From NCBI GenBank assembly GCA_048941285.1, contig JBHLNS010000010.1:20177-84176 (forward strand): a stretch of 64,000 bases of DNA, written 5' to 3'. The notes under the pieces were generated by a model. It ran no database searches, was not told the origin of the DNA, and worked only from the letters and a program-made list of their open reading frames with translations. Positions within the stretch are counted from its first letter, which is position 1. Each line of letters opens with the position of its first letter. This stretch comes from Promethearchaeota archaeon (GTDB lineage Archaea; Asgardarchaeota; Lokiarchaeia; Sigyniarchaeales; SOKP01). Made by a program: the position numbers and the translations under genes. Below, piece after piece: positions 17,433-63,782 of the stretch.

Positions 17433-17443
17433 ATAATTAAGTC

Positions 17444-19474: not shown

Positions 19475-19478
19475 CTAA

Positions 19479-20279
19479 TTATAGGCGATGTATGTGAAAT
19501 CCGCCATCAATATCTAAAATTGTTCCCGTAGAAAAGGGAATTAAACCGCTTACAATTGCGATTATAGGTTTAGCAATATCAATGGGTTTACCCCATCTTT
19601 TAATTGGGGTAACGCCCTCGTTGATTAGTTTATTATAACTTTCAAATCTCGGTTTTGTTAAAGGGGTATCTATTATTCCTGGTGATATCTCAAATACGGG
19701 AATTTCATGTTCAGCTAATCTTACGGCAAAAAGTTTAGTCATCATGCTCATCCCTGCTTTTGAAATACAGTACTCCCCTCTGTTAAGTGAAGCTGTATAT
19801 CTATTTATAGAAGAAATATTAATGATATATGGTTGATAATCGTCTTTTATGGTTTGCTTTAGCTCAATCATCCATTTAGCAATAGCTTGAGTTAAGAAGA
19901 AGGGACCTTTAAGATTGATTCCCATTACTCTATCATAGGATTCTTCTGTCATTTCTAACATTTCTCCTCGTTTAATAGGACCAACGCCTGCGTTGTTCAC
20001 TAGGACATCTATTCGATTGAATTTCTTCTTAATTTCTTCTATTATTTTTTGTCGATCTTCTCTTTTTCCCACATTTGCTTGAATGTAAACATATTTATCT
20101 TTTAAATCCTCATTATAGATTTCTCTTAATCTTTTTGTATAGTCAGCCGAAAGCACCTTAGTTAAAGCACCATTAATAGCAACTGAAAAGCCAATTTTGG
20201 CTAGTTCCAAGATAATTTGTTCACCTATACCATGACTACTTCCAGTCACTAATGCTACTTTTTTATTTTCACGGCTCAT
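19479..20279 (-). CDS. SDR family oxidoreductase (3-oxoacyl-ACP-reductase-like)
   Basis: TGSSHGIGEQI, NNAG, YCISK; 4-nt gap to the downstream FAD gene. Confidence 0.85.
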   Translation of the reverse strand: MSRENKKVALVTGSSHGIGEQIILELAKIGFSVAINGALTKVLSADYTKRLREIYNEDLKDKYVYIQANVGKREDRQKIIEEIKKKFNRIDVLVNNAGVGPIKRGEMLEMTEESYDRVMGINLKGPFFLTQAIAKWMIELKQTIKDDYQPYIINISSINRYTASLNRGEYCISKAGMSMMTKLFAVRLAEHEIPVFEISPGIIDTPLTKPRFESYNKLINEGVTPIKRWGKPIDIAKPIIAIVSGLIPFSTGTILDIDGGFHIHRL

Positions 20280-20420
20280 AAAATACTATTTATTTGATTT
20301 TATTAAAAATATTATCAAATAGATCTCGTAAATCTAAATTTAAAAGAATAAATATAACATCATCTCTATCTAACAATAACACTTTAATTGAATAAAATAA
20401 AAATTATAAAATGATTCAGA

Positions 20421-22127: not shown

Positions 22128-22161
22128 ATACCTAAAAGAGTAAAATTTACTTTAAATCCAA

Positions 22162-22171
22162 TTTTTTTTTT
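22162..22171 (+). terminator. oligo-T tract (T10) after the acyltransferase gene
   Basis: T10 lies 35 nt after the stop at 22127. Confidence 0.35.
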
Positions 22172-22211
22172 ATTAAATTTAAAATTACCATTTTAATTAG
22201 GGGTTTTTTGA

Positions 22212-24248
22212 ATGAATCATATTAAGAAAAATATGAGTGAAACAGAGATTGAAGTTTATGTAAGAAGTGTTCTTAATAGAATGACTTTAGAACAAAAAGT
22301 TCAACAAATGACTGGGAATGGATTATATCTTAAGGTGTTAAAAGATGGAGGATTTGGTAAGCGGGTATATGATGCAGCTGGTTCAGATGAATTTAATATT
22401 CCTCCCTTTAAATTTACTGATGGTCCTCGCGGAGTAATAATACCAGATTCTACATGTTTTCCCGTTTCAATGGCTCGTGGAGCATCCTGGGATATAGAAT
22501 TAGAACAACGAATTGGTGATGTGATCGGAAAAGAAGTTCGTGCACATGGAGGTAATCTTTTTGGAGGTGTTTGCATTAATAATTTACGACACCCCTCTTG
22601 GGGCAGAGCTCAAGAAACTTATGGTGAAGATTCTTATCTAATAGGAGAATTTGGTGCTGCATTAACTCGTGGGGTACAAAAACACAATGTCATGGCAACT
22701 GCAAAACATTTTGCAGCAAACAGTATTGAAAATGCACGTTTTAAGGTCAATGTGAAAATGGACGAACGAACACTACGTGAGGTATATTTACCACATTTTA
22801 AAAGATGTGTAGAGGAGGGATGTGCAACAATAATGAGTGCTTATAACAAAGTTCGAGGAAAATATTGTGGTCATAACAATTATCTGTTACGTGAAATTTT
22901 AAAAAAAGAATGGAATTTTGATGGATTTGTACATTCTGATTGGATTTACGGTTTAAAAAATACTGTAGGCGGAATTACAGGTGGTTTAGATGTTGAAATG
23001 CCTCGAAAAAAATACTATAGACTTCGGAGAATACAAAATTTTCTCCAAAAAGGCAAAATATCAGAAGATATGATTGATGAAGCTGCTCGAAGAGTCATGA
23101 AAACAATCCTTCGTTATACTACCAAAGAAGATCCCCAAATATATGAACAAGATTTAATCGGATGTGAAGAGCATCTTAATGTAGCATTAGAAGCTGCAGA
23201 AAAGAGTATGGTACTCTTAAAAAATGAAAATAATATTCTACCCTTGAAAAAAGCTAAATTAAACAAATTAGGAATCTTTGGAAGATTAGCCAGATTAAGA
23301 AATACAGGTGACCATGGCAGTAGTAATGTAAATAACAAAAAAATTATTACTCCTTTAAAAGGTATAAAAAATTATTTGGGAGATTCCATTGAACTGCTTT
23401 ACAATGATGGACAAGATGAAGATAGTGTGAGAAAAATGGCTAAGGAGGTGGATATTGCTATTATAGTTGTTGGATTAACCTATAAGGATGAGGGAGAATA
23501 TATTCGTGAATTCAGAACTGGCGGAGATCGAGAGAATTTATCATTAAATGATAAGCATATCAAATTGATAGAGAATGTTGCATCTCAAAATGCAAAATCT
23601 ATTGTTATTTTAGTTGGAGGGAGTGCTATTACTATGGAAGAATGGAAAAATAAAGTTCCAGCAATACTAATGGCATGGTATTCAGGCATGGAGGGAGGGA
23701 AAGCTTTAGCAAGAATTATTTTTGGTGAGGTTAACCCAGGTGGAAAACTTCCCTTTACTATTCCTAAAGATCCAAACGATTTACCATTTTTTGATAAGAA
23801 CGCTGATGAAATTGAATATGGGTATTATCATGGATATACTCTTTTTGACAAAACAGGATTGGAACCAGCATTTCCTTTTGGTTTTGGATTAAGCTATACC
23901 GCTTTTGAATATAGTAATTTAAACGTTGATGTTAAAAATGATTCTATTCTTGCTTCTGTAGAAGTTAAAAATACCGGAAAGATAACTGGAGATGAGGTAG
24001 TTCAATTATACATAGGATTTGAAAATTCTAACATTGATCGTCCAGTAAAATTATTAAAAGGCTTTTCGCGAGTTCACATAAAACCAAATGAAGTTAAAGA
24101 TGTAAATATTGAAGTTCACATAAAGAATCTTGCATGGTATAATCCAACTTCTAAAACTTGGGAGATTGAAAAAATACAATATACACTTTATGTAGGTCCA
24201 TCATCTAAAGAAGATGAACTGTTATCTGTTCAATTTAAATTGAACTAA
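22212..24248 (+). CDS. glycoside hydrolase family 3 (beta-glucosidase / beta-hexosaminidase-type)
   Basis: KHFAANSIE, nucleophile motif GFVHSDW, and a C-terminal Fn3-like region (GKITGDEVVQLYI); no signal peptide, so probably cytoplasmic. Confidence 0.9.
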   Translation: MNHIKKNMSETEIEVYVRSVLNRMTLEQKVQQMTGNGLYLKVLKDGGFGKRVYDAAGSDEFNIPPFKFTDGPRGVIIPDSTCFPVSMARGASWDIELEQRIGDVIGKEVRAHGGNLFGGVCINNLRHPSWGRAQETYGEDSYLIGEFGAALTRGVQKHNVMATAKHFAANSIENARFKVNVKMDERTLREVYLPHFKRCVEEGCATIMSAYNKVRGKYCGHNNYLLREILKKEWNFDGFVHSDWIYGLKNTVGGITGGLDVEMPRKKYYRLRRIQNFLQKGKISEDMIDEAARRVMKTILRYTTKEDPQIYEQDLIGCEEHLNVALEAAEKSMVLLKNENNILPLKKAKLNKLGIFGRLARLRNTGDHGSSNVNNKKIITPLKGIKNYLGDSIELLYNDGQDEDSVRKMAKEVDIAIIVVGLTYKDEGEYIREFRTGGDRENLSLNDKHIKLIENVASQNAKSIVILVGGSAITMEEWKNKVPAILMAWYSGMEGGKALARIIFGEVNPGGKLPFTIPKDPNDLPFFDKNADEIEYGYYHGYTLFDKTGLEPAFPFGFGLSYTAFEYSNLNVDVKNDSILASVEVKNTGKITGDEVVQLYIGFENSNIDRPVKLLKGFSRVHIKPNEVKDVNIEVHIKNLAWYNPTSKTWEIEKIQYTLYVGPSSKEDELLSVQFKLN

Positions 24249-24264
24249 ATATGAAAAATTTTAA

Positions 24265-25284
24265 TCAAAATTTTTCAATATTTTCTTTTTTCCCAGTTTC
24301 AGAAGATTTATATAAAGCAGATATTAAACTTAGAACTTTAGAGCTTTCTTCTATTGTATTGAAATAAGGTTTATCGTGAAGTACCCATTCCCCAAATGCT
24401 TTTACTGATCGCCCAAAATGAGAAAACCCTTTTATTTCTTTTTTGGTTTTGAATTTTTTGACCCCTTTCCAAGTTAAAGATGATTTTGGCCAAGGACCTT
24501 TATAGAAACATCTTCCTTTTTTACCAAAAACTTCCAATTCAACCTTTTCTTTAAATATTCCGTAAGGGGGGTTAATAAATGTTGAATCATTAATTTGGGC
24601 ATAGATTCCGTTTTCAAATTCAATAATTCCTAAACCAAAATCTTCTACTTCGATATTCTTGAATCTGAGATTATCAGTCTTTCCCATTATTGTTTTTGGT
24701 GCGCCAAAAGCCCATATCATAATATCAAGTATATGTGAACCATGAATTAAAAGAGTTCCCCCTCCTGCAGTCTCTTTTTTAGTCCGCCAGGGACCTTTTT
24801 CAAAATATGTTTCATTTCTACTGAAGTATACATTACAATTAGCGTAATATACTTCACCTAAATGATTATTCTGTAAAGCATTAACCAAACGATAGCAATT
24901 ATGGTCATATCGATAATTATAATTAAAACCTAACTTCAAATCTTGGTATTGATTATCTAAATTCTGTATCTCCCGAGCGTCGCCTAATGATATAGAAACA
25001 GGTTTTTCACAGAGAACATGCTTTCCATTTTCAAAAGCTTGTTTTATCATTGGTTTATGAAGGTGATGAGGTGTGGCAATATATACAGCATCAAAATCCT
25101 CATTCTCATACATCTCCTCAGGATCTGTACAAGCATATCCTCCAATTTTAATAGCTTTATTTATATCTAAATCAACGGCTGCAACAATTTTTGTATTTTT
25201 TATTATTTTTGTTACAAGTTTATACATCTTAGTTATCCCACCACAGCCGATAACCCCAACTTGCAATAGATTTTTATTAGTCAT
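24265..25284 (-). CDS. Gfo/Idh/MocA family oxidoreductase
   Basis: N-terminal Rossmann VGVIGCGGI and the conserved EKP motif (HVLCEKPVS). Confidence 0.85.
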   Translation of the reverse strand: MTNKNLLQVGVIGCGGITKMYKLVTKIIKNTKIVAAVDLDINKAIKIGGYACTDPEEMYENEDFDAVYIATPHHLHKPMIKQAFENGKHVLCEKPVSISLGDAREIQNLDNQYQDLKLGFNYNYRYDHNCYRLVNALQNNHLGEVYYANCNVYFSRNETYFEKGPWRTKKETAGGGTLLIHGSHILDIMIWAFGAPKTIMGKTDNLRFKNIEVEDFGLGIIEFENGIYAQINDSTFINPPYGIFKEKVELEVFGKKGRCFYKGPWPKSSLTWKGVKKFKTKKEIKGFSHFGRSVKAFGEWVLHDKPYFNTIEESSKVLSLISALYKSSETGKKENIEKF

Positions 25285-25302
25285 TGTGCTCCACCATTAT
25301 TG

Positions 25303-25935
25303 CTATTCTTTTAGAACCCATCTAACCATATCTCTTATAAGTGTACGATAGATCTTATTCTTTAAAGATTTTGCTTGATGTCCTAATGCACAAAAAGCAA
25401 CTCTTCCCTCTCCATACGTCTTAACCCAGATTATAGGTTCAGGATTAGGATCTTTCTCATCATGATAATATCCTTCTGCTAATACTTTCATATCACCTTT
25501 CATAGAGAAATCGTGTCTATATGGTTCATCAAAGAAAGTAAAGTCTTCTAGATTAGCAATTATTGGATGAGATTTATCAAGTATTTTGATATCTATGTTG
25601 GTTTTCTTTTTATGCTTTAAAAATCTCCCTCCAATCATTTCATAATATTTAGGATGCTTCTTAAAAGAAGCTGAGGCTCCATGTAATCCAACAAATCCTT
25701 TTCCACCAGCAATAAAATCCAGTAAATTTTTTTCTTGCTTTTCAGTAAATTCACCAAATTGAGTAAAAAAGACAGTTGTGTCATAATCAAAGAAGTCTCT
25801 ATTATTGAAGATTTCTACATCTTCGTAAATATCAACAATATAATCATTTAAAACTTCCTTAAAATAAGAGGAGGTTTTTTTCTTCTTAAAATGCCTACCC
25901 CTTTGACATATCAAAATTTTCTTTTTCACAGCCAT
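25303..25935 (-). CDS. ThuA-domain protein (trehalose-utilisation-like)
   Basis: GGKGFVGLHGASASF, IGGRFLKH, GRVAFCALGH; 18 nt upstream of the Gfo/Idh/MocA gene. Confidence 0.75.
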   Translation of the reverse strand: MAVKKKILICQRGRHFKKKKTSSYFKEVLNDYIVDIYEDVEIFNNRDFFDYDTTVFFTQFGEFTEKQEKNLLDFIAGGKGFVGLHGASASFKKHPKYYEMIGGRFLKHKKKTNIDIKILDKSHPIIANLEDFTFFDEPYRHDFSMKGDMKVLAEGYYHDEKDPNPEPIIWVKTYGEGRVAFCALGHQAKSLKNKIYRTLIRDMVRWVLKE

Positions 25936-25994
25936 AAACCATCATAAAAAAAAAATGAAAAGTTCTTTATTAAGGGATCTCTAGTTATAATGTA

Positions 25995-27368
25995 ATGAGT
26001 CTAAATCCTTCCCTCTCCCAATTTGAAACATTTGCTTATAAAACGTTAAATGAATTAGAAATAAATATTAAAAAATTGGGATTGGATATTCCAATATATC
26101 CAAGAGTAGAAATTCTACAACAAAGAGTACATGTTCATAATTTATTTTTACCTAACAGATTAGCAATTCAACCAATGGAAGGATTCGATGCTAATTCTGA
26201 TGGATCTCCTGGAAAATTAACTTATAGACGATATGAAAGATATGCAAAGGGTGGGGCTGGTTTAATTTGGTTCGAGGCTACAGCAATTAACTATGATTGT
26301 CGATCAAATCCTCATCAATTAGTCTTATCAGAAGAAAATTGTGAAAAGTTTGAAAAATTTGTTTCATTTACAAGAGAGGTTTCTAATAAAGCTCTTAAAG
26401 AGTTAGGTTTTGTGAATAAAAGTATATTAATTCTCCAATTAAACCATTCTGGAAGATATTGTGTAAGGGATGGTAGGAATTATCCTTTAAGAGGTTATCA
26501 TAATCCTGATTTAGATAAAGCTAAAAAACTCTCAAAATTGGAAGGTACTATTTTATCGGATAAGGAATTAAAAGAATTAGAGGATGTTTGGGTTCAGAAA
26601 GCGATTTTGGCAAAAAAGGTCGGTTTTGATGGGGTAGACATTAAATCTTGTCATGGTTATTTAATTCATGAATTACTTAGTTCAAGACTTCGAGAAGACT
26701 CTAAATATGGTGGGAAATCTCTAGAAGGTAGGTCAAAATTTCTTCTAAATATCATAAAAAAATTAAATAATAAACTCAAAAATGAGAGAAATTTTATAAT
26801 TACAACTCGAATGAGCGTTTACGATGGAATTCCTTTCCCTAATGGTTTTGGAGTTAAAATGGATGAAACTGAGAGTTTTCCCGCTTCAATAGACCTTTCT
26901 GAGCCTTTAGAGGTTATTAATAAGCTCTATAAACAAGGTTTAAGGTTAATAAATATATCAGCGGGAAATCCTCATTATAAACCTCAAATCACTCGCCCGT
27001 TTGATAAACCAATAAAAGGAGGGCTTTTACCGAATGAACATCCTTTATATGGTGTAAATAGGCTTTTAAACTTGGCAACCTTAATTAAAAATCATCTACC
27101 AGATGACATGATAGTTGTGGGATCTGGTTATTCCTATTTACGCCAATTTGCAGGATACGTTGCAGCGGGTATGGCACATGAAAAGCGAGTAGATATTTGC
27201 GCATTTGGAAGGATGGCATTAGCAAATCCTAATTTTCCAAAACAAATTTTTCAAGAGGGAAAAATGGATAAAAAACAGGTATGTATCACCTGTTCAAAAT
27301 GTTCTGAATTGATGAAACTAGGCCAAAATGTAGGATGTGCTACTAGAGATCCTGAATATCAGAAGTAA
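25995..27368 (+). CDS. Old Yellow Enzyme-type NADH:flavin oxidoreductase with a C-terminal Fe-S motif
   Basis: LPNRLAIQPMEG, CHGYLIHELLSSRLR; the C-terminus reads CITCSKCSELMKLGQNVGC (CxxCxxCx11C). Confidence 0.8.
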   Translation: MSLNPSLSQFETFAYKTLNELEINIKKLGLDIPIYPRVEILQQRVHVHNLFLPNRLAIQPMEGFDANSDGSPGKLTYRRYERYAKGGAGLIWFEATAINYDCRSNPHQLVLSEENCEKFEKFVSFTREVSNKALKELGFVNKSILILQLNHSGRYCVRDGRNYPLRGYHNPDLDKAKKLSKLEGTILSDKELKELEDVWVQKAILAKKVGFDGVDIKSCHGYLIHELLSSRLREDSKYGGKSLEGRSKFLLNIIKKLNNKLKNERNFIITTRMSVYDGIPFPNGFGVKMDETESFPASIDLSEPLEVINKLYKQGLRLINISAGNPHYKPQITRPFDKPIKGGLLPNEHPLYGVNRLLNLATLIKNHLPDDMIVVGSGYSYLRQFAGYVAAGMAHEKRVDICAFGRMALANPNFPKQIFQEGKMDKKQVCITCSKCSELMKLGQNVGCATRDPEYQK

Positions 27369-30699: not shown

Positions 30700-31596
30700 A
30701 TGAAATTATTACGAACTCCTGATGAATTGTTTGAAAACCTCCCGGATTATCCATTCAAGCCTAATTATTTAAATGTTGAAGGAATAAGAATTCACTATAT
30801 AGATGAGGGACTTAAAGATGCTGAGGCTATACTTCTTATGCATGGAGAACCATCATGGTCCTACTTATATAGACATATGATTCCAATTTTATTAGAAGCA
30901 GGATTTAGAACTATAGCACCAGATTTAGTTGGGTTTGGAAGATCTGATAAACCAACTGAAAAAAGTGACCATACATTCCGTAAACATGTAGAATGGATAT
31001 CTAGTTTTGTTAATATGCTCGATCTCAAAAATATTACCTTATTTTGCCAAGATTGGGGCTCATTAATAGGTTTAAGAGTTGCTATTGAAAATCAAGAACG
31101 TTTTAGCAGGATTGTACTATCGAATGGAGGATTACCTACGGGAGTAAGAAAACCAACTGAGGCATTTTTAGAATGGCAACATTTTTCGAGAACTGCTACT
31201 AAATTTAATGTTGGAAGGATTATCCAGGGAGCTACAATTACTAAATTGCCAAGAAATGTGATAAAAGCGTACGATGCCCCGTTTCCGGATGATACTTTTA
31301 AGGCGGGACCTAAAATTATGCCTTCATTAGTTCCAACTTCAATAGAAGATCCAGAGCATGAGGCAAATAAAGAAGCGTGGGAGCAGTTTTCACAATGGAA
31401 AAAACCCTTTTTAACAGCTTTCTCTGATAAAGACCCCATTACAAGAGGGGGTTACAGAAAATGGCAAGAAAAAGTTCCAGGTGCTCAAGGACAAAAACAT
31501 GTTACAATAAAAGATGGCGGACATTTTGTCCAAGAAGATAAAGGTCCTGAGTTAGCGAACCTCATAATAGAATTTATTAAAAGCAATCCTTTATAA
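30700..31596 (+). CDS. haloalkane dehalogenase (alpha/beta hydrolase)
   Basis: N-terminus LRTPDELFENLPDYPFKPNYLNV..IHYIDEG, oxyanion HGEPSWSYLYR, nucleophile elbow CQDWGS. Confidence 0.85.
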   Translation: MKLLRTPDELFENLPDYPFKPNYLNVEGIRIHYIDEGLKDAEAILLMHGEPSWSYLYRHMIPILLEAGFRTIAPDLVGFGRSDKPTEKSDHTFRKHVEWISSFVNMLDLKNITLFCQDWGSLIGLRVAIENQERFSRIVLSNGGLPTGVRKPTEAFLEWQHFSRTATKFNVGRIIQGATITKLPRNVIKAYDAPFPDDTFKAGPKIMPSLVPTSIEDPEHEANKEAWEQFSQWKKPFLTAFSDKDPITRGGYRKWQEKVPGAQGQKHVTIKDGGHFVQEDKGPELANLIIEFIKSNPL

Positions 31597-46367: not shown

Positions 46368-47222
46368 ATGAAAGGAATAGAAAAATTTAGGGAGAAGTTA
46401 CCAGATTATCAAGGAAAAAGAATAATTAAATTTTTAGTTGTTGTTCCAATTGTTTTTCTAATCTCCATAGTCTTTCAGTTAGTAATAGATTCACTACCAC
46501 GTATCCTCAGAGAATCCCCTATTTTGCAAATTCTGGAACCATTGACTCCCATTTTTGGTTCATTGATAATCCTAGTCATTGGCTTCTCATTGGTCTATTC
46601 ATTCTGGCATATGAGAGATAAATATTTGAAGATTAATCACAAATTAGCCTATCAAAAAGCCTTTAAATTTGTTGTGACTGGTATCCCACTAGTAATTTCA
46701 ATTGTAATCCATAGCTATTTCCCTACTGATTTAATTATGCCATACCAAGATAATAAATCTATTAGTTGGTATTTAGCGTTACCTATTTCTAATATTTTCT
46801 TCAATTATTCAATTATTTTGTTTTTTATTAGAATAACCTTATGTATTGTATTTTTTGGATTAGCATTAAGCGTAATTAGAAAGACTTTTGAAGTATTTGG
46901 CATTGATTATATGGGTTTAATCTATATCTATTACCCAGAAGATTCTAAAATTCAAAACCACGAAATTTATTCTGTATTACGTCATCCAACTTATCATTGC
47001 CTTTTACTATTTAATTTTGCGAGTTTTTTTTTAAGATTCTCTGTTTATTCTATTATCTATTTTGTAATATTTTTGATAGGGATAAATATTCATATTAGAT
47101 TGGTAGAAGAGAAAGAATTAATTCGGAGATTCGGAGAAGATTACATTAAGTATAGAAAAAGTGTACCCGCACTCTTTGTAAGAATGAAAGATTTAAAAAA
47201 GTATTTCGCTCTCATATTTTAA
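46368..47222 (+). CDS. ICMT/PEMT-family membrane methyltransferase (N-terminally extended)
   Basis: YSVLRHPTYHCLLLF and VEEKELIRRFGEDYIKYRKSVP. Confidence 0.7.
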   Translation: MKGIEKFREKLPDYQGKRIIKFLVVVPIVFLISIVFQLVIDSLPRILRESPILQILEPLTPIFGSLIILVIGFSLVYSFWHMRDKYLKINHKLAYQKAFKFVVTGIPLVISIVIHSYFPTDLIMPYQDNKSISWYLALPISNIFFNYSIILFFIRITLCIVFFGLALSVIRKTFEVFGIDYMGLIYIYYPEDSKIQNHEIYSVLRHPTYHCLLLFNFASFFLRFSVYSIIYFVIFLIGINIHIRLVEEKELIRRFGEDYIKYRKSVPALFVRMKDLKKYFALIF

Positions 47223-47234
47223 AACGTTGTTTTA

Positions 47235-47828
47235 CTATTTTTTCTTAAATCGGGGAAAGATAGCACCAGTTTTTTTTTGATATTCCCTATATTTTTCACC
47301 AAAACGTTTTATAAGGTCTTGCTCCTCATAGTAAATCATAATTGGAACATATAATATTATATAAATACTCATTAGGACAATAAGAAACCATGAATTCACC
47401 ATAAAAGCTATTGCAATAAATAATGGGAATTCTCCAAGCGATTGAGGATGCCTTATATAATTATATATCCCCCCATACATCTGTGTATCTTGAGATGGTT
47501 GGATAGTTTCTTGACCTGCATCTCTTACTCCTTTTATAAGTATAATTAAACAGGGAATGGTAATTAATACCCCAATTACAATACCAATTATATAATTTGT
47601 GTGTACTTGCCAACTAACTAAAGAAATCGGAAACATGCTCCATAGTGTCAAATTTATCACAATTATAAACTCAAAAAAACTCGCAAAAATTCGTAATTTC
47701 ATACATTCTCTCCAAGCACGATCGCCCTTTGTTTGTTCTCTCTTTATTGGTTGAATACTTAAAATATAAAGGAAACTAAAAAGAAAGAGGCTTAATAATA
47801 ATGATCCAAAATTTATCCAATCAAACAT
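47235..47828 (-). CDS. ICMT/PEMT-family membrane methyltransferase
   Basis: GIYNYIRHPQSLGEFPLF and YEEQDLIKRFGEKYREYQKKTGAIFP; convergent with the previous paralogue, 12-nt gap. Confidence 0.7.
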   Translation of the reverse strand: MFDWINFGSLLLSLFLFSFLYILSIQPIKREQTKGDRAWRECMKLRIFASFFEFIIVINLTLWSMFPISLVSWQVHTNYIIGIVIGVLITIPCLIILIKGVRDAGQETIQPSQDTQMYGGIYNYIRHPQSLGEFPLFIAIAFMVNSWFLIVLMSIYIILYVPIMIYYEEQDLIKRFGEKYREYQKKTGAIFPRFKKK

Positions 47829-48102: not shown

Positions 48103-49281
48103 ATGCTTTTAAATGATTTATCGAATATAATAGGAGAAACGGCAGAAGATTGCATAATTTATAAGAAGTTGTGTAAAGAAGTTGAATATGATTTTGATAA
48201 TACTTTAAAAGAATCAACTTTAGGAGAAATTCCATTTGTTCCATGGAGTTTTTTTAAACTTTCGAATAATAGATTTAAAGATTTATTGCGAGGTAATACT
48301 TTTGAAAATCTAAAATATTGGATGGAATCTTCTTCAACTTGTGGAGACCCTAGTATCGTGGGAAGATTGGATAATGACATTGAAGTCTTAAAAGCTAATT
48401 ATAATGAGGTTTTTAATTCATTTTCCCAAAAAGATAAAGTGAATAATTTAATCTTATTTGCACCAGGAATGAGAATCATTAATAAAATACGACACAATTT
48501 TTACGGTATAAATGCTTTTCTTCTTTATAAAAGCATTGTAGACATATGGGAAGGAAAAAATATTAATTATTTACTACAATTCTTTTTGGGTAAAACTATA
48601 GGAAAAATGTTAACCACATTTAAAGCTCGAGCAGTAATTGGGATTAATGGAAAATTACTCAAATATGAACTTGATCGAGTTGAACAAAAAAAAATTCCTA
48701 CCATAATGGCTAATTCTCCACTATGGATGCATAAAGTGTTAAATGATTATTATCTTAAGGAGAAAAAAACTTTTGATCTAGGTGATCATTTTTATATTAT
48801 TACGGGGGGTGGGGGATGGGACGGAACAAAAGGGCGTGTTAAATTAGGATATAGTGTAAAAAAACCTGAATTTGTTGAACAAATGTGTAATATGTTCAAC
48901 ATTACCCCCGATAATTTTTGTGATAATTTTGCAGCTACTGAAAGTCCAATGGCATGTGGTGGTCATTGGTCAAACCACTATAACGATTTTATACTCCACG
49001 TTAATAATGCCCAGGGTCGAATAGTAATTCGTGATATTCAAACTTCAGAACCTATAAGAAAAACAGGAGAGCCTGGTCTTTTGGAATTAATAACTCCATA
49101 TGGAGTGGAGGGCTATGCAGGATTAGCTGTTTTACTAGATGATATTGTTCAAGTAGAAAATTGGGAAAGATGCCCAGAATGTAATCGAGAAGGCCCAATT
49201 TTTCGAGTATTGGGACGATTAACACCTTCTATCGGAAAAGGATGCAGTTCATTATTTACTCTAGATGCATATAATTTGTAA
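48103..49281 (+). CDS. LuxE-family acyl-protein synthetase / adenylate-forming enzyme
   Basis: Collinear with LuxE landmarks: IPFVPWSFFK, SSSTCGDPS (SSGT-like), YIITGGGGW, EPGLLELITP, KGCSSLFT. Confidence 0.6.
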   Translation: MLLNDLSNIIGETAEDCIIYKKLCKEVEYDFDNTLKESTLGEIPFVPWSFFKLSNNRFKDLLRGNTFENLKYWMESSSTCGDPSIVGRLDNDIEVLKANYNEVFNSFSQKDKVNNLILFAPGMRIINKIRHNFYGINAFLLYKSIVDIWEGKNINYLLQFFLGKTIGKMLTTFKARAVIGINGKLLKYELDRVEQKKIPTIMANSPLWMHKVLNDYYLKEKKTFDLGDHFYIITGGGGWDGTKGRVKLGYSVKKPEFVEQMCNMFNITPDNFCDNFAATESPMACGGHWSNHYNDFILHVNNAQGRIVIRDIQTSEPIRKTGEPGLLELITPYGVEGYAGLAVLLDDIVQVENWERCPECNREGPIFRVLGRLTPSIGKGCSSLFTLDAYNL

Positions 49282-52903: not shown

Positions 52904-53554
52904 ATGATTATAAATAGAATTAAGAAATTGATCGCTGTTTTATTTTTAATCCTATTTATTAATATAGGTTTTATCTTATCTGCTATTGAAGTATATTTTA
53001 ATTTGGGTACTTTAATCATAATAATCAGTTTTACATTGATATTAAGCCTTGATATTAGTATTAGGCCAATAACTCAGAAAAGAGATCAGTTTAAATATGC
53101 CACGCTTTCAGTATTGTTATTTTTACTACTTCCATTGTTATCTATTATTCCGTATTTAGAATTCTACTTTCTAACACAGCGATATTTCATAATATGGAAT
53201 AATTTTTTATTATATTTTGTTGGAATGGTTTTATTATTACTTGGTGGGATAATTTTGATTTATAGCAGACTTATCCTAGGAAAGCTTGCATCTAGTAAAA
53301 TTGTTATTGAACAAAATCATATTTTAATAAACAAAGGAATTTATAAATATATTAGACATCCGATATATTTAGGGATGCTTCTTATTTTTTTTGGTTATGC
53401 GTTATCTTTCAAATCTGTTTTTAGTCCTTTTTCTTTTCTAATTTTATTCTTCCTTATTTTTAATAATCGCATGAATTTGGAGAGGAATATGAATCTTATA
53501 TTAATAAAACTAAGAGACTTATTCCTTATATATATTGAAATTTTAAATGAGTAA
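52904..53554 (+). pseudogene. ICMT/PEMT-family methyltransferase with a frame-disrupted C-terminus
   Basis: KGIYKYIRHPIYLGMLLIFFGYAL is intact. The canonical C-terminal block EFGEEYESYINKTKRLIPYIY* is encoded in a different frame (53473..53538), and the EE..L element expected before it is missing. Confidence 0.55.
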
Positions 53555-56656: not shown

Positions 56657-57478
56657 CTAAAGAAAAAAATCTTGATAAAGTTCAGCCTTGAGATCAACTG
56701 AAAATTTTTGTAAATCAGTTATACCATGTTCGATAAGAATTTCTTCATCAATAAAGAAATTTCCCGTGTAATGTTCACTTGGTTTTGTAAAAATAATATA
56801 AGCTGCATCAGCTACGATTTCTGGAGTCCTTGAATGCTTAATTGTGGATTCCCCACCTAACAAATTTTTCACAGCTGCAGTTGCTATAGGAGTGCGAGGC
56901 CATAAAGCATTAACAGCAATCCTATCTTTCTTAAATTCTTCAGCCATTCCTAAAACACACATACTCATTCCATATTTAGAAATTGTATATGCTACGTTAT
57001 TTTTAAACCATTTTGAGTCTAAATTTAAAGGAGGTGATAAATTTAATATATGAGGGTTTTCTGCTTTTTGCAAGTAAGGGATACATAACTTTGAGCATAA
57101 AAAAGTTCCTCTAACATTAACTGAAAACATTAGATCAAATCGTTTCATCTCAAGCTCTAAGGTGGGTGATAGATTTATGGCACTTGCGTTATTTACAAGA
57201 ATATCAATACCCCCAAATTCTTTTACGGTAGCTTCAATGGCAATTTGAACCTGATCTTCATATCTGATATCTGTTATACAAGGGAGAGCATTACCTCCCG
57301 CTGAGATTATATCTTCAACGGCGCTATATACTGTTCCTGGCAATTTTGGATGAGGATCTTTCGTTTTCGCAACTACTGCTATATTTGCTCCATCACGAGC
57401 TGCTCTTAAGGCAATAGCTTTGCCAATTCCCCTACTGGCACCAGTAATGAAGAGAGTTTTCCCTTTTAAAGATTTCAT
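56657..57478 (-). CDS. SDR family oxidoreductase (HSDL2-like)
   Basis: TGASRGIGKAIA, NNAS, YTISK, PHPKLPGTVYS loop. Confidence 0.85.
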   Translation of the reverse strand: MKSLKGKTLFITGASRGIGKAIALRAARDGANIAVVAKTKDPHPKLPGTVYSAVEDIISAGGNALPCITDIRYEDQVQIAIEATVKEFGGIDILVNNASAINLSPTLELEMKRFDLMFSVNVRGTFLCSKLCIPYLQKAENPHILNLSPPLNLDSKWFKNNVAYTISKYGMSMCVLGMAEEFKKDRIAVNALWPRTPIATAAVKNLLGGESTIKHSRTPEIVADAAYIIFTKPSEHYTGNFFIDEEILIEHGITDLQKFSVDLKAELYQDFFL

Positions 57479-57615
57479 TTAAATCAAGCAAATTTTCTTA
57501 TAATTAATTTTAGTTAACTTTGTTATTTTCTATTTTAACTAATCTTTTATATTTTATAGTAATAATTCATAAGAAAAAGGTTTAAACACATTTTTAACAT
57601 ATTTTACTCATAATA

Positions 57616-58104
57616 ATGGCAGATTTGAATCCCGAAAAATTGCATGTTGTTTATAAAGATTCGGTTGATGCTGATAGATTAGTTTTGCCTCGTAAATATA
57701 CATTAACACATTCTGATTCAACTGGAGAGCTTTTCCTTACAATAGGAATTGAATATGATTATGAACAAATTTCAAGTTTTTATACTCGATTTATGAGAGA
57801 CGAGGTATTAGCTGAATGGCAAAAGAAGGAAAAAGATTTTGAACTCCATTTCTACTTACATGTGAGTGGTGGTTTTTGCTTCGGATGGCCAAGATTACGA
57901 GATAGAATCTTTCGATATCACCTACCCCTTGTTTTTGAAGCAGTTAGATATGGAGATAAGAAATTATTTGAAGAAATGCCAGAAATCAAGGATTCACAAA
58001 TTATTGTACATTTTCAATCGAATAGAAAGAAATATAATCTTATTGAAAATTTCGGACAATTTTGCGAGATCCCCGTTAAGAATTATAGAATATTCACTCA
58101 ATAG
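57616..58104 (+). CDS. Staygreen (SGR) family protein, Mg-dechelatase homologue
   Basis: Collinear with plant SGR landmarks: LPRKYTLTHSDSTGELFLTIG, RDEVLAEW, LHFYLHVSGG, RDRIFRYHLPLVFEAVRYGDKKLFEEMPEI, IIVHFQSN..YNLIENFG. Confidence 0.8.
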   Translation: MADLNPEKLHVVYKDSVDADRLVLPRKYTLTHSDSTGELFLTIGIEYDYEQISSFYTRFMRDEVLAEWQKKEKDFELHFYLHVSGGFCFGWPRLRDRIFRYHLPLVFEAVRYGDKKLFEEMPEIKDSQIIVHFQSNRKKYNLIENFGQFCEIPVKNYRIFTQ

Positions 58105-58190: not shown

Positions 58191-58796
58191 ATGAATGAAA
58201 TAAGTAAATTAGTTGAACAAGGATATAATAAAATTGCTGATGAATATTATACTTATAGAGATATTAACAAATTTGATAACGAGCTAAGAAAATTTGCGTC
58301 TCTCCTTCCACATAATGCTCATATATTAGATGTAGGATGTGGAGCCGGTATTCCTACTGCCAAATTCTTAGTAGAAAAAGGGATTCAAGTTACAGGAATT
58401 GATCTATCTCAAACAATGTTGAACCTAGCTCGAGAGAATGTACCTAATGCTCAATTTATTAAAATGGATATGAATGAACTTGAATTTAAAGAAAATACGT
58501 TTAATGGAATTATAAGTGTATATACTTTATTCCATGTTCCTAAGAAGAATCATTTCGAAATATTCAAAAGATTTCATAAAATATTGAAGCCTGGCGGTAT
58601 TTTGTTAATGAACACCGGTATCTTAGAATCAGAAGGAACCAGCATTTTTTTCGGTGTTCCAATGTTTTGGAGTAATCTCAATCCAAAAACAACTCTCGAT
58701 CTCGTAAAAAGTGCAGGATTCTCTATAATTTCTGAAGCGATTTTAGAAAGAGGTGGAGAATATCAATATTGGATTTTTGGAAAAAAAATTAAATGA
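58191..58796 (+). CDS. class I SAM-dependent methyltransferase
   Basis: ILDVGCGAGIPTAKF motif I, and LKPGGILLMN. Confidence 0.8.
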   Translation: MNEISKLVEQGYNKIADEYYTYRDINKFDNELRKFASLLPHNAHILDVGCGAGIPTAKFLVEKGIQVTGIDLSQTMLNLARENVPNAQFIKMDMNELEFKENTFNGIISVYTLFHVPKKNHFEIFKRFHKILKPGGILLMNTGILESEGTSIFFGVPMFWSNLNPKTTLDLVKSAGFSIISEAILERGGEYQYWIFGKKIK

Positions 58797-58894: not shown

Positions 58895-60130
58895 ATGATA
58901 TTATTTAGTATTAGAAATGCATTTAGGAAAAAATTAATCGCGATACTTGCTGCTATTGGTGTCGGATTTGGATTAATGTTAGTTTTTGTGATTGGTGCAT
59001 TCACAGCAGGCGTTACTGCTCAGTTTCAAGATAGTCTTACAAGAACTTTGGGTATTGTAAGTGTTACTGAGAAATTTCAACAAGGAGCAGAGAGTCATCT
59101 TCCATTAAGCCTTCCTCAAGAGATTCAAGATACTCCAAATGTTGGGGAATATATATTAAGCTATAATGTTGAAACTCAAACTCCAGATTATTTTACTTCA
59201 GAATATTGGGGTAATTTAAGTACTTTTGGAGATAGACTCATTTTAAAAGGACTTAATTCTACAATAGATAGTAATTGGGAAGGTGTTACAACAAAAATTA
59301 TCGAAGGAAGAACTTTTGATCCTAAGAAAAATGAAACTATAATAGATTCCCGATTATTAGATATTGCAGATTTTCCAGTATCAATAGGCAGTAATATTAC
59401 ACTCAGTTTGGATTTAAGTGGAAATAAAACTTCAATTCTAACAATAGTAGGGATATATGAACAGGAAGACACAGGAGCTCCCTCATTTGTTCCCAGAGAT
59501 TATTATATTTATACAGATATGCAGACTACGTGGAATTTTCTCAATATAGCAGGTGAAACAAGTAATAAATACACTTTGATATATCTTAGATTTAATGTTA
59601 AAGGGCATAAAGATACAGATGAGTTGGTAAAAAGGATTAATGATTATTCAGAAGATGATGGATATGCGCCGTTATATGTGACAGCATTTTCACTTGCTAC
59701 TTTTCTTCAGGAAATAGAGGATACATTTAGGATCTTTGACTCATTCACAGCAGTTTTAGGCTTTATTGTTGTTCTTTCAGGAGGAATGGCAATAATTGTA
59801 ACTCAATTGATGTCGGTTTCATCTCGTATGAAAGAATTTGCTATTCTTAAAGCAACAGGATGGAAAAATCGTCACATTTTCAAGGATGTAATTTATGAAT
59901 CTCTAACACTAGGCATCTTGGGAGCCGTTATTGGATTATCGATCGGTATTTTGCTTATTTTCCTCTTAGGTGGAGGTTTATTGCCATTTGGAGGTGTTTC
60001 AGCTATGGTTACATGGAGAGGTGTTATAGAAATAATTGTCTATGCTCTCGGCTTAGGTATTGTTGGAGGATTATATCCAGGCATAAAAGCATCCAGAGTA
60101 AGACCCGTAGTGGTCTTAAAAGGAGAATAG
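58895..60130 (+). CDS. ABC transporter permease, FtsX/MacB type
   Basis: N-terminal TM, a large periplasmic-type domain, and a C-terminal FtsX-like 3-TM bundle ending GLYPGIKASRVRPVVVLK. Confidence 0.8.
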   Translation: MILFSIRNAFRKKLIAILAAIGVGFGLMLVFVIGAFTAGVTAQFQDSLTRTLGIVSVTEKFQQGAESHLPLSLPQEIQDTPNVGEYILSYNVETQTPDYFTSEYWGNLSTFGDRLILKGLNSTIDSNWEGVTTKIIEGRTFDPKKNETIIDSRLLDIADFPVSIGSNITLSLDLSGNKTSILTIVGIYEQEDTGAPSFVPRDYYIYTDMQTTWNFLNIAGETSNKYTLIYLRFNVKGHKDTDELVKRINDYSEDDGYAPLYVTAFSLATFLQEIEDTFRIFDSFTAVLGFIVVLSGGMAIIVTQLMSVSSRMKEFAILKATGWKNRHIFKDVIYESLTLGILGAVIGLSIGILLIFLLGGGLLPFGGVSAMVTWRGVIEIIVYALGLGIVGGLYPGIKASRVRPVVVLKGE

Positions 60131-60134
60131 TGAG

Positions 60135-60851
60135 GTGTTAATGATTGAACTTATAAAGTTAAAAGATGTTAGTAAAATTTATGGTGAAGAAAGAACTACA
60201 ATTAAAGCATTGGATCGTATTAACCTAGAAATTGAAGAGGGAAATATTATTACGGTAATGGGACCTTCGGGAAGCGGGAAAAGTACTTTATTAAATATAC
60301 TTGGAGCTATGGATAAACCCACATCTGGAGAAGTTTTGGTTAATAACATTGAGATAGGAGGATTGCCTGAAAGAAAATTGTCCAATTATCGCAAATCCCA
60401 AGTAGGGTTTATTTTTCAGAATTTTTATTTATTGCCAAATCTGAATGTCATAGAAAACGTTCTTGTCCCTATAGTCCCCTTTGGGATTAAAGAAAAAGAC
60501 CGTAAAAAAGCGCAAGAATTATTAGAAATCGTTGGATTAGGTGAAAGAGCGAATAGTAAAGTAAGTAAGCTCTCGGGCGGGGAATCTCAAAGAGTTGCTG
60601 TTGCTCGTGCATTAATTAATAATCCCAAGGTAATATTAGCTGACGAACCAACGGGAAATTTAGATACTGAAACCGGAAAATCAATAGTAGAGCTCTTAAT
60701 AAAATTAGCTGAAAGTGGAAAAACTTTGATTATTGTTACGCATGATCCCAGAGTTGTATCATTAGTTGCTAACCATCCACTCGGTAAAAACATTTGGATA
60801 AAGGATGGGCAATTAAGCGATCAACCTACCTACGATCTAAATTGCTGGTAA
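60135..60851 (+). CDS. ABC transporter ATP-binding protein (MacB/LolD-like)
   Basis: GPSGSGKST, LSGGESQRVAVARAL, ILADEPTGNLD; 4-nt gap after the permease. Confidence 0.9.
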   Translation: MLMIELIKLKDVSKIYGEERTTIKALDRINLEIEEGNIITVMGPSGSGKSTLLNILGAMDKPTSGEVLVNNIEIGGLPERKLSNYRKSQVGFIFQNFYLLPNLNVIENVLVPIVPFGIKEKDRKKAQELLEIVGLGERANSKVSKLSGGESQRVAVARALINNPKVILADEPTGNLDTETGKSIVELLIKLAESGKTLIIVTHDPRVVSLVANHPLGKNIWIKDGQLSDQPTYDLNCW

Positions 60852-61963: not shown

Positions 61964-62815
61964 ATGGAAAAAGAAGAACTATTACATTGTTTAAATTGTG
62001 GCAGAAAATTAAGTGCTGAGAATAAAGTTAGCAATAATTTTTGCGCTGAATGCGTTCTAGGTTTAGATTTTCGAATAACTGATTTAAATCATAAAGAAAT
62101 TGATATTTATCTTCAGAAGATATTAGATTTTTTCATTTCAGATGTAAATGTCGCTTTTAACAAAGATCCTGCAGCAAAGTCTCTTATCGAGGTATTAACA
62201 AGTTATCCAGGAATTAAAGCTGTTCTATTATACCGTATAGCACACTTTTTTTGGAAAATGGGAATGCCCTTTATTCCAAGGTATATATCTGAGATCGCAA
62301 GAGAGTTAACAGGCATAGAAATTCATCCAGGTGCAGAAATAGGAAAAGATTTCTTTATAGATCATGGAACTGGTTGTGTTATTGGTGAAACTACTGTTAT
62401 AGGAAATAATGTTACAATATTTTCAGGTGTAGTTTTAGGAGGCACAAATATTGATCCTGTAAAAAGGCATCCTACTTTAGGTAATAATGTAGTTGTAGGG
62501 ACTGGAGCTAAAATTCTTGGACCTGTTAATGTTGGAGATAATGTAAAAATTGGTGCAAATTCTGTTGTAGTAACTGATGTACCACCAAATTCAGTAGTAG
62601 TGGGTGTACCCGGGAAAATTATTTCGAGAGAAGGTGAAAAAATAGAAAAAATAGATTTACGGCACGGTGATTTACCTGATCCCCTAACACTCACAATAAA
62701 AACTTTGGATAAAAGAATAAAAGAATTGGAGAACAGAGTTCTTGATCAAACGGAAAAGGAAAAGAAGAAAGATGATATTGAAATTTACTATGGAGAATAT
62801 GGTCATGGAATTTAG
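61964..62815 (+). CDS. cysE: serine O-acetyltransferase with an N-terminal zinc ribbon
   Basis: DPAAKSLIEVLTSYPGIKAVLLYRIAH, TGIEIHPGAEIG..FFIDHGTGCVIGET, and the hexapeptide-repeat region KRHPTLGNNVVVGTGAKILG; N-terminal CLNCG..CAEC; C-terminal ...YGHGI. Confidence 0.85.
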   Translation: MEKEELLHCLNCGRKLSAENKVSNNFCAECVLGLDFRITDLNHKEIDIYLQKILDFFISDVNVAFNKDPAAKSLIEVLTSYPGIKAVLLYRIAHFFWKMGMPFIPRYISEIARELTGIEIHPGAEIGKDFFIDHGTGCVIGETTVIGNNVTIFSGVVLGGTNIDPVKRHPTLGNNVVVGTGAKILGPVNVGDNVKIGANSVVVTDVPPNSVVVGVPGKIISREGEKIEKIDLRHGDLPDPLTLTIKTLDKRIKELENRVLDQTEKEKKKDDIEIYYGEYGHGI

Positions 62816-62855
62816 AAACTATTAATAAAATTATAAAAAAAAAAGTGTTAGATAT

Positions 62856-63782
62856 ATGGGAATATATAATAATATAATTGAGACCATTGGCAAAACTCCG
62901 CTAGTGAAATTGAATAAAATTGCTGAGAATATTAAACCTTCAATATATGCAAAATTAGAATATTTCAATCCAGGAGGCAGTGTGAAGGATAGAATAGCAA
63001 TGTCAATGATTGAAAGAGCGGAGGAAGAAGGATTGATATCTCAAGATACTGTTATAGTAGAACCCACTTCAGGTAATACAGGAATTGGATTAGCCCTTGT
63101 TTGTGCAGCTAAGGGATATAGATTAATCCTTACAATGCCAGATAGCATGTCTATAGAAAGACGGCAGATTTTAAAAGCATTTGGGGCAGAATTAGAATTA
63201 ACTCCTGCTTCGGGAGGCATGAAAGGTGCTATCGAAAAAGCAGAAGAGCTGTCAAAAGAAAGAGGGAAAGTTTTTATTCCACAACAATTTAAAAATTTGG
63301 CTAACCCTGAAATTCATAGAAGAACTACTGCTAAAGAGATATTTAATGATTTAGCGGGACAAATTGATGGGTTTGTAGCGGGTGTAGGAACAGGTGGAAC
63401 AATTACTGGAGTTGGCGAGATTCTAAAGGATAGAGTAGGAGCAAGATTAAAAGTATATGCCGTAGAACCCAAAGATTCGCCTGTATTGTCTGGAGGTAGT
63501 CCTGGCCCCCATAAAATTCAAGGAATTGGAGCGGGATTTATTCCAGAAGTGTTAAACACAATGATATACGATAAAGTAATAACAGTAGATTATGAAGATG
63601 CTTTAGCTACAGCTAGAAAACTTGCACGCTTGGAAGGGATTTTTGTTGGAATATCCTCTGGAGCGAATGCGTGGGCTACTTTATATGAAGTTTCAAAGGA
63701 TTTCGGAAAAGGAGAAAATATAGTAGTAATTTTACCTGATACAGGAGAAAGATATCTTACGACTGATGTATTTAAATTCTAA
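62856..63782 (+). CDS. cysK: cysteine synthase A (O-acetylserine sulfhydrylase)
   Basis: GGSVKDR PLP-lysine motif, [22 protein letters not shown]. Confidence 0.9.

Follow-up and report, generated by a model that had tools for sequence, protein, structure and literature searches.

A Staygreen-family gene near a heliorhodopsin gene in an Asgard archaeon: a putative Mg-dechelatase with a possible role in light stress

A Staygreen-family gene in an Asgard genome

The DNA analysed here is a 64,000-nucleotide stretch of contig JBHLNS010000010.1 from a Promethearchaeota archaeon (the whole stretch is called the window throughout), and its subject is a gene of the Staygreen, or Mg-dechelatase, family (SGR). 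Reading along the window, a divergent gene for a short-chain dehydrogenase/reductase (SDR) is followed by SGR and then, on the strand of SGR, by genes for a methyltransferase, a MacB-type ATP-binding cassette (ABC) exporter, a heliorhodopsin (HeR), and CysE and CysK, the successive intergenic gaps from SDR to CysK being 137, 86, 98, 4, 190, 124 and 40 bp (Table 1). An earlier note on this DNA, made from the sequence alone, had drawn attention to SGR as a dechelatase homologue in a presumably non-phototrophic archaeon. We find in addition that SGR genes of the Asgard/Chloroflexota type have often been drawn into light-response neighbourhoods, while HeR is not generally a partner of SGR.

The 162-aa protein described in that note corresponds to an exact open reading frame (ORF), and all of the sequence blocks quoted for it are present. 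The search with the Staygreen profile PF12638 that the note had proposed gave a match for residues 4-150, covering positions 2-145 of the 147 in the profile (E=1.8e-48; 164.6 bits, where the curated cut-off is 27). The single match by sequence in the PDB is chain A of 7Y5Y ('Staygreen domain-containing protein'), the Anaerolineae enzyme AbSGR-h, which aligns without gaps over residues 3-155 (E=2.7e-50) at approximately 53-56% identity. Both matches lie far beyond chance level; a scan against NCBIfam returned no matching model for the protein. An AlphaFold2 model built with 30 homologues as input (pLDDT 76.5, pTM 0.76) again had 7Y5Y_A as its sole significant match when compared with the PDB by Foldseek (E=1.4e-20, TM 0.85/0.91, rmsd 2.4 A, 53% identity).

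As the alignment with 7Y5Y is gapless, the two proteins have a common residue numbering. Window SGR keeps all 12 positions that have been mutagenised in AbSGR-h (R26, Y28, T29, T31, H32, D34, T36, R61, D62, E63, R95 and D114), and its T-H-S-D-S-T motif is intact (T31, H32, S33, D34, S35, T36). Across 81 related SGR loci, described below, H32, D34 and D62 are invariant, and position 114, an Asp in the window protein, is D in 76 of the aligned sequences and E in 6. The mutagenesis work on AbSGR-h found D34 and D62 to be essential for activity, assigned a structure-maintaining role to R26, Y28, T29 and D114 (with a salt bridge between R26 and D114), and placed H32 in contact with the docked ligand (PMC8531759).

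With regard to substrates, AbSGR-h dechelates chlorophyll a (Chl a), chlorophyllide a, protochlorophyllide a and Chl b/c, according to the account of Obata 2019 that is relayed in PMC11006732. According to the literature, dechelatase activity and specificity vary strongly among prokaryotic SGR homologues, and the activity has been called promiscuous. The statement in the earlier note that plant SGR removes Mg and that some bacterial homologues are active agrees with PMC8531759 and PMC11006732. We consider window SGR to be probably a bona fide Mg-dechelatase of the SGR family and an active enzyme; its activity is putative and is proposed because AbSGR-h, at the degree of identity given above, dechelates. 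By analogy, we infer that the window protein would remove Mg2+ from chlorophyll-type Mg-tetrapyrroles by way of Asp34, Asp62 and His32.

A sequence identical to window SGR, encoded on an 85.5-kb contig, is named 'MAG: staygreen family protein [Promethearchaeota archaeon]' at NCBI, where MAG stands for metagenome-assembled genome; it came to light by homology search, an exact-sequence look-up having given no record. Promethearchaeota are the Asgard phylum, and the host is therefore an Asgard archaeon, as the earlier note's archaeal assignment would have it; the genes flanking SGR are 74-92% identical to counterparts on Promethearchaeota/Promethearchaeia MAG contigs. The G+C content is even along the window (0.23-0.36, mostly about 0.30). 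A gene for a Ras-family small GTPase, a protein family typical of Asgard genomes, lies at 2857-3414 on the minus strand (PF00071 E=8e-39, also Roc/Arf), and a similar Arf/Ras-like gene is found 6 kb from SGR in one of the related loci (L001).

The Pfam scan of the window took in 51 ORFs; 11 small ORFs stood outside it, two of which matched only the local SDR model. None of the 51 belongs to a family of (bacterio)chlorophyll biosynthesis (Mg-chelatase, BchM/ChlM, POR/BchLNB or chlorophyll synthase), and within this scope the absence that had been claimed for the window holds. As the host makes no chlorophyll, the substrate of SGR would be exogenous or different. The same 51 ORFs include no member of the families of the PAO/phyllobilin pathway (pheophytinase/chlorophyllase, Rieske and PaO pheophorbide a oxygenase, RCCR). 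Scans of the window for tRNA genes and Rfam families gave no matches.

Genes and a conserved site around SGR

Table 1. Positions of SGR, its upstream element and the neighbouring genes in the window
Feature	Position	Strand	Basis and remarks
HSDL2-type SDR	56657..57478	-	PF00106 E=6e-35; PDB 3KVO (human HSDL2) E=1.3e-101; NF006133 441 bits (cut-off 250)
Conserved upstream element, ATAnTTTAnAnTAATAnTTnATAA then TATA-like GTTTAAAC	57549..57572, 57580..57587	+	29-67 bp upstream of the SGR start codon
SGR (Staygreen / Mg-dechelatase family)	57616..58104	+	ATG-to-stop ORF, 162 aa; PF12638, 7Y5Y
Class-I S-adenosylmethionine (SAM)-dependent methyltransferase	58191..58796	+	PF13649/PF08241 E ~1e-22; 86 bp downstream of SGR
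MacB/FtsX-type ABC exporter permease	58895..60130	+	PF12704 MacB_PCD and PF02687 FtsX
ABC transporter ATPase (LolD/MacB type)	60135..60851	+	PF00005 E=1e-34; 4 bp after the permease gene
Heliorhodopsin (HeR), 265 aa	61042..61839	+	PF18761 E=1.1e-97, full profile; NCBIfam NF038020 'heliorhodopsin HeR' equivalog, 319 bits (cut-off 100)
CysE and CysK	61964..63782	+	NCBIfam

The HSDL2-type SDR gene runs divergently from SGR across the 137-bp gap, and an orthologue (78-88% identity) lies approximately 135 bp upstream of SGR at most loci of what we call Asgard clade A. On the other side, 34 loci have a methyltransferase orthologue (70-82% identity) approximately 110-125 bp after SGR. The methyltransferase of the window scores below the cut-off of every NCBIfam model, and an assignment to BchM/ChlM (Mg-protoporphyrin methyltransferase) was rejected, the score being 47 bits against a cut-off of 159. 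A MacB-type permease gene stands downstream of SGR or of the methyltransferase gene in 11 loci; for the ATPase that accompanies it in the window, the nearest NCBIfam models are LolD, MacB and FtsE, all of them scoring under cut-off.

The HeR gene of the window is complete and lies on the same strand as SGR, 2.9 kb downstream. All of the aligned HeRs have E117 and K250, which we take to be the counter-ion and the retinal-binding lysine, respectively. With a complete heliorhodopsin gene in its genome, the host would be expected to sense light.

Between the SDR and SGR genes, an AT-rich block made up of ATAnTTTAnAnTAATAnTTnATAA and GTTTAAAC stands out as the columns with at least 80% identity over the SDR/SGR intergenic regions of 26 Asgard clade-A loci. 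When the window was searched with this element, the sole match was the site itself, 1.3 matches being expected by chance. The same element, with 0-1 mismatch, is present upstream of an HeR gene that leads into SGR in two other loci (L008, 6887-6910; L033, 1702-1725), and this implies a shared promoter and co-transcription there. Other matches in SGR loci, with up to 3 mismatches allowed, are mostly compatible with chance, L008 and L033 excepted. The element may be a shared promoter or operator.

Light-related genes at SGR loci of relatives

Four homologues were looked up first; the SDR-SGR-methyltransferase core, with SDR divergent, was common to them, and in one of them HeR stood directly upstream of SGR. 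For the wider sample, 80 loci were fetched from species-representative genomes and, after deduplication, 81 non-redundant loci were available, in which neighbour families were defined by annotation-free clustering of all ORFs. The families that recur are SDR (36 loci), methyltransferase (34), heliorhodopsin (21), major facilitator superfamily (MFS) transporter (20), ABC ATPase (16), MacB (11), DNA photolyase (11; PF00875 and PF03441, E=3e-94), a 260-aa membrane protein that we refer to as c18 (7), aldo-keto reductase (7) and Fpg/Nei glycosylase (6).

In 30 of the 81 loci (20/57 Asgard, 10/24 others), SGR has an HeR or DNA photolyase gene no more than 8 kb away, and the linkage is found in 14 of the 45 loci that have at least 5 kb on both sides of SGR. 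Counted by SGR sequence cluster, it is present in 9/21 clusters at 70% identity and in 19/50 at 80%. The 32 HeR and photolyase genes in 1.03 Mb amount to 31 per Mb, at a median distance to SGR of 0.9 kb and with 19 of them no further away than 1 kb; this local density is approximately 30-fold over chance, where the chance figure is an estimate from general knowledge.

On the SGR tree, the linkage appears in three places, namely Asgard clade A, Asgard clade B and a Chloroflexota clade, and it takes at least five arrangements: HeR directly upstream, divergent, downstream, or downstream after methyltransferase or exporter genes, and photolyase upstream. Within Asgard clade A, HeR may stand upstream of SGR (directly, beyond SDR, or at 2-4 kb) or downstream of it (directly, after the methyltransferase, or after exporter genes), and photolyase is upstream in three loci. 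Within Asgard clade B, HeR is divergent and 0.2-1.6 kb upstream. In five loci (L006, L008, L031, L033 and L084), HeR and SGR are immediate neighbours on one strand, with 49-171 bp between them. The clade-B loci (L045-L061) have, in addition, an ARPP-1-domain protein and a small helix-turn-helix protein encoded upstream of SGR, a 164-aa ATP10-like protein adjoining it and an N6/N4 DNA methylase downstream. One contig labelled Nanopelagicaceae (L048, DATKTW010000016.1) is probably mis-binned, because its SGR, heliorhodopsin, ATP10-like and aldo-keto reductase genes cluster with those of Asgard clade B.

The bacterial loci provide the most compact arrays. In Anaerolineae bacterium W379 (L067, DUEZ01000085.1, 36-7954), an SGR that is 100% identical to AbSGR-h closes a nine-gene, one-strand array of photolyase, SDR, NmrA/DUF2867, DUF1475, DegV, TspO/MBR-like, DUF4345, DUF3159 and SGR genes, which overlap or stand with small gaps. 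Two further loci (L081 and L068) open with the gene for a regulator that combines MerR and B12-binding domains (PF13411, PF02607, PF02310), the architecture of the CarH/LitR light-responsive repressors, followed by genes for an amine-oxidase/CrtD-like flavoprotein, photolyase, SGR, an NAD-binding/DUF2867 protein and an MFS transporter. The order in L084 is MarR, two ABC half-transporters, HeR and SGR (only HeR and SGR have a Pfam basis, the rest being assigned by eye), and in L071 it is HeR, a DegV-like protein (by eye), a membrane protein and SGR. The only families common to archaeal and bacterial SGR loci are HeR, photolyase, c18, MFS, generic SDR and ABC proteins, and one Fpg.

The c18 protein of L067 matches the TspO/MBR family (PF03073 E=3.4e-6, 27.3 bits, cut-off 24). 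We treat c18 as TspO only tentatively: three bacterial members score 27 bits against the same cut-off, and the Asgard members are without a direct match.

Partner genes of chlorophyll catabolism (PPH, PAO and RCCR types) are not conserved near SGR in any part of the 81-locus sample. Candidates of this kind were confined to a Rieske/VanA_C gene in L001 and an alpha/beta hydrolase gene in L003/L004, and were dropped as they are not conserved.

Distribution, phylogeny and previous record of SGR

The family is large: 1,333 relatives of window SGR were found in a 90%-clustered database, and 644 clusters (50% identity, E<=1e-3) among 1.84 billion representatives. The top 120 relatives share 63-81% identity with window SGR, and those that carry a taxon name belong to Promethearchaeota, Lokiarchaeia, Odin-, Hermod- and Hodarchaeota. 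No SGR was found on viral contigs.

A neighbour-joining, midpoint-rooted tree, drawn without support values, has three groups. The outer one consists of 150-aa proteins, one of them from Tepidibacter (Clostridia); sequences of Asgard, Chloroflexota and Bathyarchaeia, along with a few others, form the second, to which AbSGR-h belongs; and the third, sister to the second, is made up of long proteins such as Asparagus STAY-GREEN. Window SGR falls in the second (Asgard/Chloroflexota/TACK) group, and the tree is in line with the published placement of AbSGR-h-like proteins closest to the plant enzymes. A vertical inheritance of SGR from Asgard archaea to eukaryotes was also considered and is not supported, as the eukaryotic SGRs are sister to the second group in this tree and not nested in Asgard.

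That an archaeon should carry SGR at all is real enough, as had been remarked, but it is less novel than was implied. SGR homologues in Archaea were already published (Obata 2019, as cited in PMC8531759); the supplement of PMC8531759 lists Thorarchaeota SMTZ-45 KXH70069.1 and MCG/Bathyarchaeota KON32503.1 and KON32872.1, and a 2026 preprint on prokaryotic chlorophyll degradation records SGR in Sigynarchaeales. With these on record, and with the exact protein named at NCBI, the gene alone is a further member of a known family that was already correctly annotated. Neither PMC8531759 nor the 2026 preprint mentions SGR neighbourhoods, rhodopsin or photolyase, the main paper on HeR genomic context does not mention staygreen or tetrapyrroles, and in the open-access literature we found nothing that joins heliorhodopsin with a dechelatase or Staygreen with Asgard. 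The linkage of SGR to HeR/photolyase neighbourhoods, though partial, is thus apparently new.

A proposed role in light stress

We favor the possibility that window SGR is a Mg-dechelatase in a light-stress response against exogenous chlorophyll-type photosensitisers, to which we give a probability of roughly 45%. Our reasoning for this is that the recurrent HeR/photolyase linkage suggests a protein that works when the cell is exposed to light, and not one that scavenges in the dark; it is from the gene neighbourhoods that we infer a physiological role tied to light exposure. Under this working model, chlorophyll(ide)s released from phototroph debris would partition into a cell that has no outer membrane and would act there as photosensitisers. 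The RGL11 and GH3 genes of the window, described below, are compatible with phototroph debris as food for the host. SGR would turn them into free-base pheo-pigments, which the HSDL2-type SDR and the class-I methyltransferase might modify, or which exporters of the MacB-type ABC or MFS kind might expel. The module would be expressed or activated together with the light sensor HeR and, in further lineages, alongside photolyase and a MerR light regulator that depends on B12. HeRs are known to bind and up-regulate the products of neighbouring genes in light, a photolyase and a multidrug ABC exporter being the examples (PMC9769723, PMC11109279), and HeR could therefore bring SGR or the exporter directly under the control of light.

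Several points weigh against this model: (i) a reverse test anchored on HeR found SGR in 0 of 80 metagenome loci whose HeRs are 50-78% identical to that of the window (31 of the 80 extend 3 kb or more to either side, SGR is also missing beside the closest HeRs, which are 65-78% identical, the positive control recovered 81/81, and photolyase adjoins HeR in 9 of the 80), and we have dropped the idea of HeR as a dedicated SGR partner on account of it; (ii) Staygreen is not among the ten frequent neighbour groups, which include photolyase, MerR, ABC transporter, SDR and alpha/beta hydrolase, in a survey of 448 HeR loci (PMC11109279); (iii) approximately 60% of the Asgard/Chloroflexota-type SGR loci have no light gene within reach, and no light-related neighbours were found in four SGR loci of the Firmicutes type (Tepidibacter, Cytobacillus, Clostridium and Gracilibacillus); (iv) the chance level behind the 30-fold density (HeR and photolyase genes at well under 1 per 100 kb) was estimated and not measured in a control; (v) in the window, HeR is 2.9 kb from SGR, with three genes and a 190-bp gap in between, which makes their co-transcription uncertain; (vi) a PDB profile search with c18 gave no TSPO match; and (vii) removal of Mg alone does not end photosensitisation, as pheophorbides are themselves phototoxic, and the model therefore needs a downstream step that is itself guessed. 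More generally, the light-stress role and the activity of the protein are predictions.

The first of these points and the Firmicutes-type loci lend themselves to another explanation, namely that SGR, heliorhodopsin and photolyase are accessory genes that gather in variable regions or are co-transferred horizontally, with no functional coupling among them. The neighbourhoods around SGR are indeed variable, and the high identity of SGR across Asgard lineages (63-81%) makes lateral spread possible. Coincidence of this kind would, however, have to produce linkage in three deep SGR clades and two domains, with varied orientations and partners and with 19 of 32 genes no more than 1 kb away, and it would also have to produce co-directional arrays of overlapping or closely spaced genes and a common upstream element. 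We regard it as decidedly unlikely.

A second alternative was already present in the earlier note, which suggested sinking phototroph biomass as the source of substrate. In its full form, this would be nutritional scavenging, in which SGR opens the chlorophyll of buried or sinking biomass for its Mg, phytol and macrocycle, light being irrelevant and HeR incidental. The window does contain a polysaccharide cluster (15432-27368) with genes for an RGL11 rhamnogalacturonan lyase (PF21348 E=6e-92), a GH3 beta-glycosidase, a GFO/IDH/MocA oxidoreductase, ThuA and an Old-Yellow-Enzyme-type flavoprotein. For an Asgard archaeon, degradation of the pectin type is unusual, and the RGL11 and GH3 genes are consistent with a diet of plant or algal debris. 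Scavenging would also fit the SGR-family identity of the protein, the broad substrate range of its close homologue AbSGR-h, the sediment origin of many related MAGs and the majority of SGR loci that are without a nearby light gene. Against this, there is no conserved pheophytinase-, PAO- or RCCR-like gene beside SGR, nor one among the scanned ORFs of the window, and the HeR/photolyase density and its recurrence across domains are left unexplained. We have kept the suggestion as a rival, albeit an unlikely one; as first put, it overlooked the HeR gene approximately 2.9 kb away and the recurrent linkage.

The third alternative concerns the substrate itself. In one 3.34-Mb Promethearchaeota chromosome (CP070831.1), there are two SDR-SGR-methyltransferase modules (L024 and L043, at approximately 0.6 Mb and 3.18 Mb), which suggests that the three genes were duplicated and inherited as one unit. 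A core that is both conserved and once duplicated in turn points to a small pathway for which plant chlorophyll breakdown has no equivalent. Dechelation of chlorophyll could on this account be promiscuous, as Obata 2019 holds in the form in which that work is cited, and the true substrate could be another metallated tetrapyrrole, or a light-relevant or light-generated compound, that is processed together with the SDR and the methyltransferase. The description of the prokaryotic activity as promiscuous and highly variable in specificity, in the literature cited above, would sit well with such a substrate. However, the clade of window SGR is the one nearest the plant enzymes, its characterised member AbSGR-h is highly active on many chlorophyll species, the catalytic residues are all invariant, and a neighbour of the tetrapyrrole-binding TspO/MBR-like family recurs, weak as that assignment is. 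To our minds a different native substrate is improbable.

If the light-stress model for window SGR were extended to the whole group, Asgard/Chloroflexota-type SGRs would be light-stress effectors in microbes that have neither chlorophyll nor an outer membrane, under HeR or B12-MerR control, and would demetallate chlorophyll-type photosensitisers that the cell has ingested or adsorbed, in preparation for their modification and export; photoprotection would be the ancestral function, later recruited as the committed step of plant chlorophyll breakdown, and not a promiscuous side activity. We hold this broader proposal to be doubtful. The dechelatase activity of prokaryotic SGRs has been treated as promiscuous in the literature and no physiological role has been offered since its discovery. 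The neighbourhood pattern provides a concrete hypothesis in its place, the light-linked detoxification of exogenous chlorophyll pigments, and makes SGR a candidate partner class for heliorhodopsins, whose known enzyme partners are few. The pattern is also relevant to the question of how the committed step of chlorophyll degradation came to plants, and to whether rhodopsin-bearing Asgard archaea live in sunlit, phototroph-rich niches. Should the link turn out to be non-functional, what is left would be one more family member, annotated before, from a lineage that was known to have the family.

Other genes of the window

Three genes for PEMT/ICMT-like membrane methyltransferases (46368-47222; 47235-47828, minus strand; 52904-53554) lie around a gene for a LuxE-like acyl-protein synthetase (48103-49281), and PEMT-like genes (cluster c14) recur near SGR at other loci. 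An alpha/beta hydrolase gene at 30700-31596 on the plus strand matches a haloalkane dehalogenase subfamily of NCBIfam (NF002043, 447 bits, cut-off 265).

Comparison with known systems

The closest characterised relative is AbSGR-h of Anaerolineae bacterium SM23_63 (Obata 2019; Dey 2021/2022). Like window SGR, it is a single-domain protein of approximately 155 aa from a non-phototrophic host, with what is predicted to be the same fold, and the identical protein in L067 also has a light-gene neighbourhood (photolyase and a TspO-like gene). Window SGR differs in being archaeal, in having a C-terminal extension of approximately 8 residues and in its partners, which are an HSDL2-type SDR, a class-I methyltransferase, a MacB/ABC exporter and heliorhodopsin in place of photolyase, DegV and a TspO-like protein. 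The archaeal SGRs listed previously (Thorarchaeota, MCG/Bathyarchaeota and Sigynarchaeales) are likewise single-domain proteins of sediment lineages, but they have been used in papers only for alignments or in tables of presence and absence.

The STAY-GREEN proteins of plants and green algae (SGR1/NYE1, SGR2 and SGRL) share the Pfam domain, across which window SGR is approximately 43% identical to Asparagus SGR. They are, however, approximately 250-290 aa long and have a transit peptide and a C-terminal extension, whereas the window protein, at 162 aa, has neither; the SGRs of the eukaryotic clade as a whole measure 205-524 aa and form a clade separate from it. The plant PAO/phyllobilin pathway differs further in that its partners PPH, PAO and RCCR are not found beside window SGR.

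There is precedent for HeR acting with the products of adjacent genes in the helper operons HeR-photolyase, HeR-glutamine synthetase and HeR-OmrDE ABC exporter. Staygreen falls outside the ten published HeR neighbour groups and is rare from the HeR side (0/80), but photolyase, MerR, ABC transporters and SDRs, all of them published HeR neighbours, each occur in SGR loci. In the helper operons, HeR stands beside a soluble enzyme or an ABC exporter, and at some SGR loci, though not in the window, it directly adjoins SGR.

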